In this document: positions 8,340-26,837 of the stretch, one piece after another | Numbering within the stretch: the stretch's first letter is position 1 | Layout: every line of letters begins with the position of its first letter | Source: a virus | Lineage: Duplodnaviria > Caudoviricetes | Virus record (IMG/VR): IMGVR_UViG_3300030397_000879 | Location: 1 to 26,837 of that record | Direction: 5' to 3' (one strand) | Length of the DNA stretch: 26,837 bases | The notes under the pieces: generated by a model | Database searches by the model: none | What the model was told of the DNA's origin: nothing | The model's input: the letters and a program-made list of their open reading frames with translations, nothing else | Program-made: the position numbers and the translations under genes

Positions 8340-8677
8340 TGTCTGCCACTTCACTCGCCACTGTCACTGCCTCGACGTTACGACGTCCAGCTCCTTCGGG
8401 TGGGTTGATTGGTGCTCCGGAGAGCAGTATTGCCAGCTTCCTGATTACGCCTTTTCAGAGTGTGAGTGCTGAATTGGCGTTGGAGGCTACGATTCAAGAT
8501 GCCAGTGAGAGCAAGGTGTGTCACGCCTTTACGAGTGGGGGTAGTCTCTACGATGTGAAGGAAGGGGATATTTTAGTGGTGAGTGGCACTGAGTATGACA
8601 TTCAGCATGTGGCTGAGTTTAATCGCGGTGTGGATTCATACAGCCGCATCATTGTTAACGAAAGAAAGGTGAATTGA
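8339..8677 (+). CDS. Putative head closure (stopper) protein
   Basis: DVKEGDILVVSGTEYDIQHV resembles SPP1 gp16 / lambda FII-type proteins; synteny. Confidence 0.65.
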   Translation: MSATSLATVTASTLRRPAPSGGLIGAPESSIASFLITPFQSVSAELALEATIQDASESKVCHAFTSGGSLYDVKEGDILVVSGTEYDIQHVAEFNRGVDSYSRIIVNERKVN

Positions 8678-8679
8678 TT

Positions 8680-8961
8680 ATGGCTGATGCGAGAAGTGGA
8701 CAAATTACGATTGGTGCTAGTGCTGTAGCTGGCCCAATGGCTCCATTAGGCGGTGTGTTTGTCTTGAAACCACACCCTAGTAATGTGGGTACTGTCTATT
8801 TTGGGGACAATGGCACGTTAGCCTTACCCAATACTGGGGTACGCATGAGTAATAAATTGAGTAAAGAACACACAATTACAACTTATCGGTCATTGAATGA
8901 AATCAATTTTCATGGTGACAATGCCGGTGACAAGGTGTGTTGGTTACAAGCGGAGTTGTAA
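8680..8961 (+). CDS. Small beta-sandwich virion protein, paralog 1 of 3
   Basis: Shares RSGQI..AVAGP..HPSN.G.V..GD..F.GD..G.KVCW with the next two ORFs. Confidence 0.75.
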   Translation: MADARSGQITIGASAVAGPMAPLGGVFVLKPHPSNVGTVYFGDNGTLALPNTGVRMSNKLSKEHTITTYRSLNEINFHGDNAGDKVCWLQAEL

Positions 8962-8962
8962 G

Positions 8963-9244
8963 ATGCCTGGCATAAAAACAAATCAGTTTACAGTAACAAC
9001 AGCAGGGACGGCGGTGCAAGGACCAGCAAGTCCATTAGGGCGCACTTTTTACTTATCGGCACATCCCAGTAATACAGGGGCTGTGTGGGTCGGTGATGAT
9101 GGTGCTGGGGCTGTCAGCAATGCCAATGGTTTTCCGCTTCTGGTGGATGCCCGTCCTATTGAGGTTAATGTGCCTCGTTCGTTGGCTGATTTATGGTTTG
9201 ATGCAGATACCAATGGCAATAGTGTTTGTTGGTCTGCGGTTTAG
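8963..9244 (+). CDS. Small beta-sandwich virion protein, paralog 2 of 3
   Basis: SD GGAG, ATG 8963; motifs VTTAGTAV, AHPSNT, VWVG, NGFPL, VPRSLADL.FDADTNG..VCW. Confidence 0.8.
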   Translation: MPGIKTNQFTVTTAGTAVQGPASPLGRTFYLSAHPSNTGAVWVGDDGAGAVSNANGFPLLVDARPIEVNVPRSLADLWFDADTNGNSVCWSAV

Positions 9245-9255
9245 GAGAAAACAAA

Positions 9256-9540
9256 ATGGCAAGTTTACGTAGTGGACAAATTGAAGTAACAACAGCGGGC
9301 ACAGCGGTGGCAGGACCTGCTACCCCGACAGCTCGACGCTTTTTGTTAGCAGCTCATCCTTCAAATACAAACCCTGTTTGGGTGGGTAATGATGGGTCTG
9401 ATGATGTCACTAGTGGCAATGGTTTCCCCTTGGAAGCGGGGGGAGATACGGTGGTGGTGGAAGTGCCTCGTTCATTGGCTGATTTGCGCTTTGATGCGGA
9501 TACCAATGGCGAAAAGGTGTGTTGGCTGGTATTGCTATGA
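9256..9540 (+). CDS. Small beta-sandwich virion protein, paralog 3 of 3
   Basis: SD AGGAG, ATG 9256; same motifs as paralog 2, with visible DNA similarity. Confidence 0.8.
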   Translation: MASLRSGQIEVTTAGTAVAGPATPTARRFLLAAHPSNTNPVWVGNDGSDDVTSGNGFPLEAGGDTVVVEVPRSLADLRFDADTNGEKVCWLVLL

Positions 9541-18791: not shown

Positions 18792-19077
18792 TGTGTTTGT
18801 GGCTTTTTTGAGTGGCATCGTGTCTCATCAGACGCATCATATTTTTAAGCAGATGCCGCAGGGGTATTGGGTGCGAAATGCGCGGTATATTGTGGGGATA
18901 CTTTCTTCTGTGCCGGCGTATTTGTTGATGAGAGAGGAGCAAAAGAAACGGGCGAGTGAGTCTGTTTTGGATAATTTGAGTTATTATATTTTACTTTTTG
19001 CTAGTGTTGGTTTTGGGGTACAGGTAGGGTATTTGCTTGACCATGTGTTGGGCAGGAATGGTATGACTGACAGGTGA
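18784..19077 (+). CDS. Small multi-pass membrane protein (possible holin)
   Basis: Three hydrophobic segments in ~97 aa; last gene before a terminator. Confidence 0.55.
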   Translation: MISVFVAFLSGIVSHQTHHIFKQMPQGYWVRNARYIVGILSSVPAYLLMREEQKKRASESVLDNLSYYILLFASVGFGVQVGYLLDHVLGRNGMTDR

Positions 19078-19116
19078 TGACTGGGCTATAATTTGTTTTC
19101 AAATATTTAACTTTCT

Positions 19117-19158
19117 GACACCCTTTGTATGGCTCTCCGTACAAGGGGTGTTTGCTTT
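19117..19158 (+). terminator. Intrinsic terminator ending the late operon
   Basis: GACACCCTTTGTATGG(19117-32)/CCGTACAAGGGGTGTT(19137-52) with G-U pairs, followed by TGCTTT. Confidence 0.7.
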
Positions 19159-19286
19159 ATGGAACAATGTTTCTATAGCGGGGGGGAGGGGTATTGGTGA
19201 TAATGGGGGGTACAAGCTCACCACTTGTTACATCTTGATTTGCCATATAGGCATACCAGCCCACAATTTCATATATAATTGTCGTT

Positions 19287-19361
19287 GAAGGCCCATTACG
19301 CTAAGGGAATCAGGTTACGAGTGGTGAGCTCCGCTGGTGTACCGACGCGTAATGGGCTTTC
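19287..19361 (+). ncRNA. Structured antisense-loop RNA 2
   Basis: Stem 19287-301/19347-361 has one G-U pair. Loop 19319-332 is the exact reverse complement of 19383-396 (SD GGAG up to the ATG) and complementary to 19215-231. Confidence 0.78.
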
Positions 19362-19396
19362 GCCGTCAGAAGTAACTTAAAAGGAGCTCACCACTC

Positions 19397-19774
19397 ATGT
19401 TACTATTACCCCCTTTTTCCCTCTGGATGAAGCGCGAACGTCGTAAGCTTTATCTGAATCGTTATCGTGCCAGGCAGCAGGGCTTGCCGGCTACCCTTGG
19501 TATTGCTGAATGGATGAAGATTTTGAAGGCACATAATTGGCTGTGTGTCTTTTGTGGTCGTCCGTATCAGAGCTTGGAGCATGTTATCCCGATCCATGAT
19601 GGTGGGGGCACAACGCCTGAGAATTGTGTGCCCAGTTGTATTGATTGCAACTATAAACGGAATCGGGTGGTGACGAATGCCCAAAATTTGGTGACGTTGA
19701 TGCAAAACAATGCCTATGTGGTGGATGACTATATCCAAGAGCTATTGGATGAATTAGCACCCTTTATCTCTTGA
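19397..19774 (+). CDS. HNH endonuclease, copy 2
   Basis: Same motifs as copy 1; differs by 5 internal substitutions plus the last few residues. Confidence 0.9.
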   Translation: MLLLPPFSLWMKRERRKLYLNRYRARQQGLPATLGIAEWMKILKAHNWLCVFCGRPYQSLEHVIPIHDGGGTTPENCVPSCIDCNYKRNRVVTNAQNLVTLMQNNAYVVDDYIQELLDELAPFIS

Positions 19775-19831
19775 TTGAATCAGTTGTGATTGTGTTGTGG
19801 TGTATTTTGTTGGGGAAAATGTTCGAGGGCA

Positions 19832-19861
19832 TTGACAAATCGTTCGGTTTTTTTATATAAT
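19832..19861 (+). promoter_or_regulatory. Consensus sigma70-type promoter
   Basis: TTGACA (19832-37)-N18-TATAAT (19856-61). Confidence 0.8.
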
Positions 19862-19973
19862 GTTTTTGCTCATTTTGTTACGGCTAGGGAAAAGTTTTAA
19901 CAAGGTTTACAAGTTTGTCTCCTTTTGTGCAGGATTTGAGTTTTTTGGTTTCATAAAGAAACAACCTCCTTGT

Positions 19974-20042
19974 AAAAAGCCGCTTGGCACTACAGCAACT
20001 TTTTCCCTAGTCGTTGTATGTGACAAGTGGCTTTTTTCTTTT
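19974..20042 (+). ncRNA. Structured antisense-loop / attenuator hairpin 3
   Basis: AAAAAGCCGCTTG(19974-86)/CAAGTGGCTTTTT(20024-36) with inner CAC/GTG and TACAGC/GTTGTA. The loop is complementary to 19880-19896. A U-tract follows. Confidence 0.65.
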
Positions 20043-20072
20043 AGGTAGGATTTGTAAAAAGGATGGTGTTAT

Positions 20073-23828: not shown

Positions 23829-24106
23829 TAACTAATGAATTATGCCAGCACTGCCAAGAACTTGACCACTTAGAACAGTATGCCAACAAGCGGAATGAAC
23901 TAAATGATTTCAAGGATGGTCACGAGCGATTATCCTTCAATCAGCAGATAGATTTTGAGATAAGGCAATTATGGCCTCAGTGTATTTGTGGTGGGGAGAT
24001 TTACTTAGGCGGTCATTGGCTAGATTGCCCAGAATGCGGGGATGGATCGTGTGACGAGTGTAATAGTGATGGTGAAATTTTCATCGAACATAATGACATT
24101 AACTAA
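23825..24106 (+). CDS. Cys-rich zinc-finger protein
   Basis: CQHC, CIC, CPEC, CDEC; TTG start overlapping the upstream TGA; SD GGAG. Confidence 0.6.
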   Translation: MITNELCQHCQELDHLEQYANKRNELNDFKDGHERLSFNQQIDFEIRQLWPQCICGGEIYLGGHWLDCPECGDGSCDECNSDGEIFIEHNDIN

Positions 24107-24202
24107 AAACCTAGTCCAAGATAAATAACATTGTTCTTTTATCAATGATTTTCAATTAAAGAAACTTATAAAATAAACGACCTCATACTCTGGAAAACGA
24201 CA

Positions 24203-24736
24203 ATGAAAAAACTTTATTTATTCGATGTAGATGGAACACTAACAAAATTCTATGAAACTTTACTTTTGCCCAATGTAATCAAGTGGTTGGGCAACAATAA
24301 GCCGGAAGGTATCGCACTTGTATCTAATCAAGGTGGTGTTGGTCTTCAACATTGGATGGAGGCTGGTGGTTTCGGCGACCCAACTAATTATCCGTCTGTG
24401 CAAGATGTAGAAGACAGAATGAATGATATATGCAAATCCATAACGCGAACTTATGGCAAAGATTTTAGGGTGGAATGGTTTGCAGCTTATCGTTACAAAT
24501 CCAAGAAAAGCGGCAAGTGGTCGCCGATACCAGAGGGTGAACTAGACTCGCCGGAATGGTCAGAGGATTGGCGTAAACCAAATGACGGTATGTTGAAAGC
24601 GGCTTTATCTTCATTCGGAGTTTCACCCAATAATGCTGTAATGGTTGGTGATAGCGAGGAAGATATGCTGGCAGCACGTTCAGCAGGCATTGAGTTTCAT
24701 TGGCGTGATGACTTTTTTGGAGTAGAGCTAATATAA
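24203..24736 (+). CDS. HAD-superfamily IIIA phosphatase (GmhB / polynucleotide 3'-phosphatase-like)
   Basis: FDVDGTL (motif I), VSNQGGV (II), RKP..GM (III), MVGD...D (IV). Confidence 0.88.
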   Translation: MKKLYLFDVDGTLTKFYETLLLPNVIKWLGNNKPEGIALVSNQGGVGLQHWMEAGGFGDPTNYPSVQDVEDRMNDICKSITRTYGKDFRVEWFAAYRYKSKKSGKWSPIPEGELDSPEWSEDWRKPNDGMLKAALSSFGVSPNNAVMVGDSEEDMLAARSAGIEFHWRDDFFGVELI

Positions 24737-24829
24737 CACTTTCACTTTAACAACAAAATTCTGTGAGAGTTTTACAACCTATTCGATGCTAATTTTTTAA
24801 TATCAAAAACGACCGTTTCGGAGGTAACA

Positions 24830-25267
24830 ATGTTAGGCGTATTGCGGCATAATGGTATTGAGTTTGTTCCTTGGTTAATCGAAGAGAATCAATTACAAAA
24901 CAATGACGAGGTTGTAGAGCGGTACACAGGCACAAAAGAGCAATGCGAATCATCGTTCTTGCAAACATTTTACAAGCCAGCACCTAAAGACATTGCAAAA
25001 CTTGACAGGTTTAGTGGTTTCATCTCTACGGACGGCAAATTTTATTATGCTCATTTTGCAGACCACACAAGAACGGCTAGAGCAATAATGAAAACTTTGG
25101 GTGTTTCACCGTTCGAAGAATGGATAACCGTTAAACAAGGTAATGGAATTGTTTATATGTGGTTATTGCAAAGTGAACTGACACCAAAGCAGAAAAATAC
25201 TGTGATAGCCATAGAGGGAATCACTGGCAAACTAGTAGAAATATTTGAGAACTCACTACCGTTTTAA
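24830..25267 (+). CDS. Hypothetical protein
   Basis: SD GGAGGT; GFISTDGKFY...DH...A segment. Confidence 0.7.
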   Translation: MLGVLRHNGIEFVPWLIEENQLQNNDEVVERYTGTKEQCESSFLQTFYKPAPKDIAKLDRFSGFISTDGKFYYAHFADHTRTARAIMKTLGVSPFEEWITVKQGNGIVYMWLLQSELTPKQKNTVIAIEGITGKLVEIFENSLPF

Positions 25268-25281
25268 CCAAAAAGGCAGTC

Positions 25282-25524
25282 ATGGCACGACAAACTGAAC
25301 CAATTACACCAGAAAACTTAAAGAGGTTAGGCTTTCATCTAGAGGAAGCGCCATATTGGGGGCGAGTGCATGATGTTTACCACCACTTCGATAAAGACTT
25401 GTATATAAATTTTCTAAATACCGGCATTACTGCGGACTTTGGAGAATGCGAAAGATTTTTTTATGTTAATAATATGCGTGATATAAAAACGCTTTTAAAT
25501 AGCAAATTGCCGGAATTCAACTAA
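25282..25524 (+). CDS. Hypothetical phage protein
   Basis: PITPENLKRLGF start; SD AAGG. Confidence 0.65.
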   Translation: MARQTEPITPENLKRLGFHLEEAPYWGRVHDVYHHFDKDLYINFLNTGITADFGECERFFYVNNMRDIKTLLNSKLPEFN

Positions 25525-25612
25525 AAGTATCGACCACGTATAAAACACAATTCACTCAATATTCTTTATAAAATAAAGGGACGTTTTTGCTACGTGCCCA
25601 ACCCAGCAATAC

Positions 25613-25807
25613 ATGAAATACATCAGACGCAACCACAAGCCCAAAGGGGCAGTTATTCATCAAATGATTGATTCCCACAGCTTAGGGTATCAATCTGCTT
25701 GTGGCCTCACCCTAAGTACCAGGAGCTGGTCAGTGGTGCCCACGGCCCCACGGGGGCGCATTTGCAATACATGCTCATCCAGTAAAGTATGGAAAAGGAA
25801 GGGATAA
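25613..25807 (+). CDS. Hypothetical basic protein (H/C zinc-binding-like)
   Basis: H ... ACG ... CNTC; weak SD. Confidence 0.45.
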   Translation: MKYIRRNHKPKGAVIHQMIDSHSLGYQSACGLTLSTRSWSVVPTAPRGRICNTCSSSKVWKRKG

Positions 25808-25809
25808 CG

Positions 25810-26028
25810 ATGACAAACTGCGAACATAAGACTTATGCAATATTGTCTAACAACGAAGGGTATTCTGTTTTACGGTGTACCGATGGCTGTGGGGAGCTGT
25901 TGATTGCTGTGGATGGACAACGGGGGATTCACCACACCATAAAGCTGAGTGAGTATGTGGGGGTTGTCAATGCCAATTGGGGACCAATTTGGTTAGCTGC
26001 CAAGCAAATTAACCAGGCAAAAGCATGA
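25810..26028 (+). CDS. Hypothetical protein
   Basis: SD AAGGGA, ATG 25810; CEH ... CTDGC. Confidence 0.55.
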   Translation: MTNCEHKTYAILSNNEGYSVLRCTDGCGELLIAVDGQRGIHHTIKLSEYVGVVNANWGPIWLAAKQINQAKA

Positions 26029-26276
26029 ATTTTTGTTTTTTTTGAAAAAGCCACAAATTCACGCTTTCTTTATGGACGGATTGCCATATAATTTGCCATA
26101 CTTAGTCAGATTCAGTGCCAATATAACCAATAGCAAAACAATTACATAAAAACAGACAGCCCCACAATTGGAACTTGCGAGGCTGTCGCGCATCAGTGTT
26201 TTACCCAACTAGAACACAAAAGATGCCAAGAAAAAGGAATAATAATATGATACCTAAAATTAGAACATGCGACCTA

Positions 26277-26304
26277 TTGACTTTTACTACAAAATCTTTA
26301 AGAT
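26277..26304 (+). promoter_or_regulatory. Putative sigma70-type promoter
   Basis: TTGACT (26277-82)-N16-TAAGAT (26299-304); predicted +1 near 26311. Confidence 0.5.
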
Positions 26305-26344
26305 TGTTCGTGCAACGTCAAGAATTTAATAATTTCGATTGTAG

Positions 26345-26415
26345 AACAAAGCCCTTGGCTTATCATTTTCTTGGCGTTGCAACCAAATTTGATAGGTCAA
26401 GGGCTTTGTTTTTTT
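26345..26415 (+). ncRNA. Structured antisense-loop / attenuator hairpin 4
   Basis: 21-bp stem 26345-65/26390-410 with 2 G-U pairs. The loop is complementary to 26311-24 (via 26368-81) and to 26223-34. A U-tract follows. Confidence 0.7.
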
Positions 26416-26421
26416 CAATAC

Positions 26422-26457
26422 AAAAAGGGCTAGGTCGTGAGAGAAACGACCTAGCCC
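26422..26457. terminator. Perfect 12-bp hairpin; terminator-like on the minus strand
   Basis: GGGCTAGGTCGT(26427-38)/ACGACCTAGCCC(26446-57) preceded by AAAAA. Confidence 0.55.
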
Positions 26458-26485
26458 CCACCAACATTATCAACGGAGGTTAATA

Positions 26486-26837
26486 ATGTCTTCAACAAAA
26501 CAAAATGAGCTATCCTTGCCTGAAGTCAAAAAACGTCCACCTATGGCACACATCAAGCAAGTAAATGATTACTTGCAAGAGATGTTGCTTGGAATGGCAG
26601 CGAACTATTCGGATCGTGTGATCTACCAGGTTGAAAGGGAAGCCATTGACCGTCTGATTGCCATCGAGAAAGAATTGAAAACTGTATTGCCTAAGACAGC
26701 TCACGCGCTGTTGGCTGAACTCATTGACATCTATAACATCGAAGTGTCTAAAGTAGGCCATACATGCTTCTTTGCAGGTTTGCATTTTCCCAAGGCTTTA
26801 CAACAACTTGATGCCAATTGGATCGTGACTGGGAAAC
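26486..26837 (+). CDS. Hypothetical helical protein, truncated by the window end
   Basis: SD GGAGGT, ATG 26486, frame open to the window end (MSSTKQNELSLPEVKK...). Absent from the ORF track because there is no stop. Confidence 0.75.
   Translation, partial: MSSTKQNELSLPEVKKRPPMAHIKQVNDYLQEMLLGMAANYSDRVIYQVEREAIDRLIAIEKELKTVLPKTAHALLAELIDIYNIEVSKVGHTCFFAGLHFPKALQQLDANWIVTGK

Follow-up and report, generated by a model that had tools for sequence, protein, structure and literature searches.

The locus considered here raises the question of whether a hairpin that precedes a small phage gene, and whose loop can pair with sites upstream in its own transcript, belongs to an RNA switch, and if so how that switch would work. 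The window, meaning the whole stretch of DNA that was analysed (26,837 nucleotides), is an entire 26.8-kb virus record, approximately 40% complete, in which terminase, portal, capsid and tape-measure genes are followed by small genes of early type, and every one of these lies on the plus strand; the head-tail region also carries three small tandem paralogous genes (8674-9540, about 95-115 aa). Relatives of the small terminase were found in 3 of 401 genomes from the class of an Anaerolineaceae genome, compared with 0 of 401 in a control phylum, and on this basis Anaerolineae are tentatively taken to be the host. The stretch containing the hairpin, referred to here as E4, recurs with 0 differences in three contig sets, all from one study that is possibly the source of the record. 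Sequencing depth is several-fold lower than in the flanks across 24000-26818 and, in two of three runs, across 19068-19335, which could be due to a variable module or to amplification bias.

The E4 hairpin (26345-26410, plus strand) has the 21-bp stem attributed to it by the initial annotation. Positions 26345-65 pair with 26390-410 over 21 nt (90% Watson-Crick plus 2 G-U pairs; z-score -7.85, reached in 0 of 200 shuffles), and folding favors the plus over the minus strand, as is also the case for E3 and L160, two elements described below. Since a run of seven T residues directly adjoins the stem on its 3' side (26409-15), a feature overlooked initially, E4 is shaped like an intrinsic terminator whose loop is long. 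This loop (26366-82) is antisense to two upstream sites, as had been proposed. Target T1 (26311-24), located at the predicted 5' end of the transcript, is complementary to 26368-81 through 13 Watson-Crick pairs and 1 G-U pair (-22 kcal/mol), a match reached in none of 3000 dinucleotide shuffles, and is narrowly the best site for the E4 loop in the whole window (-22.0 vs. -21.5). Target T2 (26222-34, of which 26223-34 is complementary to 26366-77) has a duplex energy of -17 kcal/mol and a match reached in 2 of 3000 shuffles, and with its last base it overlaps the start of a leader-frame ribosome site. The 16-nt antisense segment was described as exposed, which in the fold model applies to 26375-82 (apical loop) and to part of 26366-70 (interior loop) but not to 26371-74, which is paired. 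Invasion of the 3' arm by 26271-80 was dropped as a defining feature: the pairing is weak, being reached in 90 of 3000 shuffles, its site lies partly over the -35 box, and L160 lacks it. The AAAGCCC core is not the same as in the first two RNAs of the initial annotation: in exact form AAAGCCC is confined to 5701, 7447 and 26348, and the elements taken as those RNAs contain AAGCCC and AGGCCC.

Transcription is predicted to start near 26310 from a promoter, P1 (TTGACT-16-TAAGAT, 26277-26304, plus strand). The proposal of this promoter is favored by a 9/12 consensus match and by counterparts in the same place relative to the target in L160 (TTGACA-17-TATCAT) and E3 (12/12), but promoter-like sites of this quality occur at chance frequency (18 found, 18.4 expected). 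Two other boxes on the plus strand may be relevant. A TATAAT -10 box with a poor -35 (26087-92), picked out by consensus match only, could be the source of transcripts carrying T2 and the leader frame, and a weak inner AATAAT box (26328-33, 8/12) could perhaps give rise to hairpin RNA without T1; the likeness of the inner box to the -10 region of E1 and E2 was matched by 9 of 224 controls. A direct repeat, TTGCCATA, occurs twice around the TATAAT box (26081-26099), and the same 8-mer is found at 19240, upstream of E2. Of the neighboring hairpins, one at 26155-87 has 13 pairs and a T-tail on the minus strand, where it is terminator-like. The second hairpin reported at 26427-57 is indeed present and perfect over 12 bp; its T-tail also lies on the minus strand, a correction that makes it a likely terminator of opposite-strand transcription. 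The strong Shine-Dalgarno sequence noted ahead of gene 26486 is GGAGG at 26475-79, and a weak plus-strand hairpin (26464-89, -6.9 kcal/mol) holds this site together with the leader stop codon and the 26486 start codon.

The leader frame consists of 78 codons (26247-26483, plus strand), spans P1, T1, the terminator and the second hairpin, and ends 2 nt ahead of the ATG at 26486. An AAGGA Shine-Dalgarno-like site (26234-38) lies 8 nt ahead of its ATG at 26247. The frame from 26223 to 26480 is open in 0.4% of 5000 shuffles (1.3% for any of three frames), and it may be translated. The 78-aa sequence is present in the Atlas, possibly from the same genome, an entry that is no proof of expression; no homologue was found, and there was no Pfam, PHROG or NCBIfam match. 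The gene that would be gated (26486-26818, plus strand) is cut by the end of the window. Positions 26819-26837 are a 19-base tail that is common to unrelated contigs and resembles a random-amplification primer-like end at many loose ends; the last gene therefore has a false C-terminus in the window, and its true product, P0001, is 140 aa long. A search of 5.8 billion proteins and 1.84 billion representatives returned P0001 itself and nothing else, bar one false match caused by a repeat protein (P0004, rejected as a relative). The full protein was assigned to no Pfam, PHROG or NCBIfam family. Its single-sequence model is helical with low confidence (pLDDT 46), and Atlas rows for DUF6809/DUF6664 (score 0.82-0.84) provide a lead only. 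The antirepressor-like or toxic function suggested for this gene received no support from any search, neither P0001 nor the leader frame matching an icd/ant-type family in Pfam, PHROG or NCBIfam, and because the 140-aa product has no homologue found, the suggestion stands as analogy only.

Folding of growing transcripts from 26310 outlines how the two pairings of the loop might follow one another. Up to 26402 the best structure combines the T1:loop helix with a hairpin of the 5' arm (26349-61) at -24 to -25 kcal/mol; from 26406 onward the terminator is best, and at full length it leads by 14.5 kcal/mol (-39.9 vs. -25.4). These figures are equilibrium folds at each length and include no kinetics. 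The T1:loop antiterminator is thus predicted as an intermediate only, and since the terminator is 14.5 kcal/mol more stable at full length, read-through would depend on kinetics. When T1 is blocked, the terminator stem builds from 26395. Stepwise folding gives the same order in E3 and in the leaders L160, L515, L310 and L140 from other contigs. That some RNA two-state switch exists at E4 is, in our judgment, very probable.

The search for relatives relied initially on the terminator base, and this pattern, run on viral contigs, returned 64 loci and yielded L160. The leader at L160 heads an operon after the lysin in a phage whose terminase subunits are 41% and 38% identical to those of the window, and it has a target at its predicted start and a loop antisense to that target. 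Of 239 terminators, L160 matches E4 best, and in the 13-bp helix that the two share all 3 variable positions have changed on both sides with pairing kept. With only one true homologue, this covariation is limited to 3 positions in 2 sequences, and stem covariation was reached in 65 of 500 shuffles. The E4 arrangement is real and is conserved in one relative. Wider scans added L515, L310 and possibly L140/L271; of L515, L310 and L140, only L140 (2.9%) aligns with E4 better than background. In L310 the loop has two targets, one upstream and one at the ribosome site of the gene that follows, and a reading frame that comes from the upstream target continues in frame across the hairpin into that gene. 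With its terminator-shaped hairpin (minus strand, about 410-560), L310 links the two layouts found in the window. L140 and L271 are possible further relatives: a leader at about 600-720 is conserved in two phages, with a 9-bp loop match, identical in both, to the loop of a small upstream hairpin, and the gene that follows is nuclease-like (weak SfsA match).

The AAAGCCC/GGGCTTT base is generic and common in ordinary terminators, and among 219 long closed terminators that have it (full flanks, window included, L515 left outside for its short flank) upstream and downstream matches numbered 16 and 11 at a score of at least 9, 6 and 7 at at least 10, and 4 and 1 at at least 11, so that upstream matches are not enriched overall. 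A refined viral pattern gave 92 unique matches, of which L160 and L515 were again the only leaders of this kind, the terminator pattern in 401 Anaerolineae-class genomes gave 16 loci with a single 11-bp match (L799), and blastn against 50,697 phage records gave no match. Virus records related through the capsid (26) or the terminase (5), 19 terminase loci and 3 Anaerolineae-class contigs, most of them fragments or distant, yielded no further element. Several candidates (L342, L292, L267 and the L498 group) were set aside by eye as low-complexity, coding-region or promoter-overlapping matches, and L001 was rejected as a 40-residue match within a long unrelated frame. L002 and L018 (1001-1086, minus strand) are related long branched hairpins from two viral contigs with a GCCCG/CGGGC base and compensatory-looking differences; no Rfam match and no self-target were found for them.

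The window itself contains four leaders in which a loop code is accompanied by its own nearby target, as was claimed. Cognate pairings range from -22 to -31 kcal/mol (-17 for T2) and non-cognate pairings from -4 to -17 kcal/mol. We take the three other RNAs of the initial annotation to be E1 (331-421), E2 (19281-19371) and E3 (19974-20036). E1 occupies 249-447 on the plus strand, with a target at 264-281, a TATAAT at 324-329, a hairpin at 331-421 and a loop antisense to the ribosome site of an HNH gene (431-447). E2 (19215-19396, plus strand) is its paralogue with a different code and with targets at 19215-28 and 19383-96. The two are homologous, lying in a duplicated cassette ahead of HNH genes that are 95% alike; their loops differ. 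The ribosome-site matches were reached in 0 (E1) and 1 (E2) of 3000 shuffles, and the upstream-copy matches in 73 and 0 of 3000, respectively. Between the cassette copies (195-830, before the terminase, and 19145-19780, after lysis-type genes) the loop, upstream box and ribosome site differ in a concerted way. Near-palindromic GAACA-N3-TTTC boxes are found upstream of E1 (211-222) and E2 (19161-19172), and resemble the Gram-positive/Chloroflexi LexA box. E3 (19832-20040, plus strand) displays the layout of E4, namely a perfect promoter, a target at 19880-94, a terminator hairpin at 19974-20036 with an antisense loop (match reached in 0 of 3000 shuffles) and then gene 20073. A 62-codon frame (19860-20048), open in 3.7% of shuffles (11% for any frame) and with its ATG in the -10 box, also crosses the E3 terminator.

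The proposal that these four leaders share one RNA scaffold is not supported. Two layouts are present: E1 and E2 have an outer stem, no U-run, and targets both upstream and at the ribosome site, whereas E3 and E4 are terminators with targets upstream only. Sequence, tree-distance and covariance-model tests did not place E4 with E1/E2 or with E3 above ordinary terminators; of 239 control terminators, 42%, 59% and 25% were at least as similar to E4 as were E1, E2 and E3, respectively. A covariance model of E4 and L160 scored E3 at 19.2 bits and E2 at 9.3 bits, and unrelated terminators with the same base at 20-34 bits. A model of E1 and E2 scored E4 at 18.6 bits, whereas 74 other loci reached 17.3 bits at most and a plain terminator of the window 16.3. 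Together with the short upstream likeness found in 9 of 224 controls, this is a faint hint of a possible remote kinship. In viral contigs the E1/E2 pattern gave 118 loci, with the layout in none among the matches listed, and the HNH protein had no match; the E1/E2 model had 0 matches in 151 Anaerolineae-class genomes.

Taken together, we give about an even chance to a reading in which this region is an attenuator leader: the loop of its terminator-shaped hairpin is antisense to the transcript itself, and the hairpin, once released as RNA, would shut the leader off in trans, in the manner of P4 CI. Transcription from P1 would begin at T1, which would capture the loop ahead of synthesis of the 3' arm while the 5' arm folds on itself, so that early transcripts would read through into gene 26486. 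Hairpin RNAs without T1, terminated or trimmed and produced by 5' trimming or from an inner promoter, would accumulate and bind T1 of new transcripts, allowing the terminator to form. On longer transcripts started upstream, ribosomes on the 78-codon frame may cross the terminator and open the 26486 start, and the same loop, bound at T2 beside the leader-frame ribosome site, would close this ribosome route too. The predicted outcome is a short burst of expression on entry, followed by self-silencing and code-specific immunity against phages sharing the loop. Further points weigh against this scheme: the terminated RNA retains T1 and could quench itself, the candidate inner promoter being weak, and L160 does not conserve T2 or the long leader frame in that form, having an 18-codon frame and a TTG frame instead.

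Of the alternatives, a switch acting only in cis, in which polymerase speed, the leader-frame ribosome or a phage or host protein decides between the T1:loop helix and the terminator and no RNA acts in trans, fares best, although we regard it as unlikely. Every fold computed here is intramolecular, as this explanation expects, and in each of E4, L160, L515 and L310 the target coincides in part with a start codon or a short frame, a post hoc observation with a background of 14% per site. It leaves unexplained, however, why each of the four leaders has a different code, and it does not account for T2, which lies upstream of P1. Quite improbable is a countertranscript of the pT181/pIP501 type, which would run on the minus strand from approximately 26331 to the terminator at 26187-26155, cover T1 and T2, and force termination. 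Both the 13-pair terminator and a promoter-like site (ATGATA-17-TACAAT, 26366-26338) are present on that strand, but the latter matches at 9/12 positions, as expected by chance, and no equivalent was seen by eye in L160.

It is also improbable, and to a greater degree, that E4 is a plain terminator and that a protein-binding DNA operator is repeated in inverted orientation as T1, T2 and the loop. One copy does lie at the predicted +1, a usual operator position, and the base of the stem is, as noted, that of many ordinary terminators. Against an operator, when the 12 target:loop helices were extended without preference for G-U they comprised 155 Watson-Crick pairs with internal departures of 5 G-U, 0 A-C and 4 others, which favors pairing of plus-strand RNA; this support is modest, as the helices were first found by a G-U-tolerant search. 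The paired double changes between E4 and L160 and the occurrence in one genome of four unrelated box sequences, each centred in a hairpin loop, are likewise difficult to reconcile with an operator. The least probable explanation is activation of the IsrK kind, in which the T1 end that the short terminated RNA retains free at its 5' terminus would bind the loop of new transcripts to permit read-through or translation, as IsrK activates its own mRNA in trans (PMC4825925), since a loop that is bound would not keep the 21-bp stem from closing and the loop covers the ribosome site in E1, E2 and L310, which points to repression.

Extended to the whole genome, the trans-repression reading leads to a broader proposal, which is possible but which we hold doubtful. 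This phage lineage, probably infecting Anaerolineae, may control several operons by means of a set of orthogonal RNA switches that need no protein, in which each leader's hairpin, once released, would be its own repressor, with a code of 13-17 nt that changes in step with its targets. The E4 loop, by closing the T1 and T2 routes, would then provide multi-channel RNA immunity outside the Proteobacteria. To our knowledge, immunity through same-transcript antisense RNA has been characterised mainly in the enterobacterial phages P1 and P4. If the proposal is correct, a terminator acting as its own repressor would be a minimal design (the entire switch measures about 110 nt) that is present in several orthogonal copies in one genome and invisible to Rfam, RNA-coded timing and immunity would be wider than catalogued, and the layout would supply both a search rule and natural orthogonal attenuator parts.

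No description of the element was found in the literature searched, which comprised listings and abstract openings and few of the older P4 and P1 papers; related motifs may be described in the supplement to PMC2864571. Rfam gave nothing relevant at gathering score and E<=5, a weak sau-19 match in L140 reaching 28 of 80 bits. The UUGGCG loop hexamer reported for the ColIb-P9 Inc RNA target also occurs in E4 (26371-76), but is considered incidental rather than defining, its first four bases being predicted as paired and the hexamer not being kept in L160. An antiterminator and a countertranscript are reported for pT181 (PMC3753616, PMC10724649). E4 resembles pT181 and pIP501 in that a 5' segment would serve as antiterminator and that blocking this segment would let the terminator form; the blocker in those plasmids is an opposite-strand RNA, whereas in E4 the antisense sequence is the terminator's own loop. 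There is a further parallel with IsrK of Gifsy-1 (PMC4825925), in which a short terminated leader RNA can pair with its own long mRNA and translation is coupled; unlike the E4 model, IsrK activates, and no likeness to it was found by sequence or in Rfam.

The closest parallels are with the antisense RNAs of P4 and P1/P7. Processing by RNase P belongs to the known background, as does the nested translation of eta and kil in P4. P4 CI, with seqA and seqC, is a same-transcript antisense RNA that causes termination (PMC4825925), P1 has the c4-icd-ant operon (PMC8198154), and c4 and c4-a1b1 motifs are listed for Proteobacteria and phages (PMC2864571). Unlike P4 CI, E4 is a single long terminator hairpin with no Rfam match and no downstream target (the best downstream site scores 5.75-6.25, whereas E1, E2 and L310 each have a target beyond the RNA), and the gene it would gate is unrelated to any family found. 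Unlike C4, it ends in a U-run, and neither the C4 antisense RNA model (RF01695; gathering score or E<=10) nor the c4-a1b1 target motif (RF03163; E<=10) matched. Given these unmatched models and the lack of a downstream target, we would like to emphasize that E4 is not filed as a member of the P4/C4 group but as an element that appears to work like it. With P1/P7 C4 it shares two unpaired segments able to read cognate boxes and a small upstream frame with predicted coupling to the next gene, and E1 and E2, which have an extra outer stem and a target on either side, come nearer to that plan than E4 does. With P4 CI it shares an antisense segment and an upstream 5'-end target in one transcript (the start being predicted), premature termination as the predicted output, and a frame, started upstream, that crosses the RNA.
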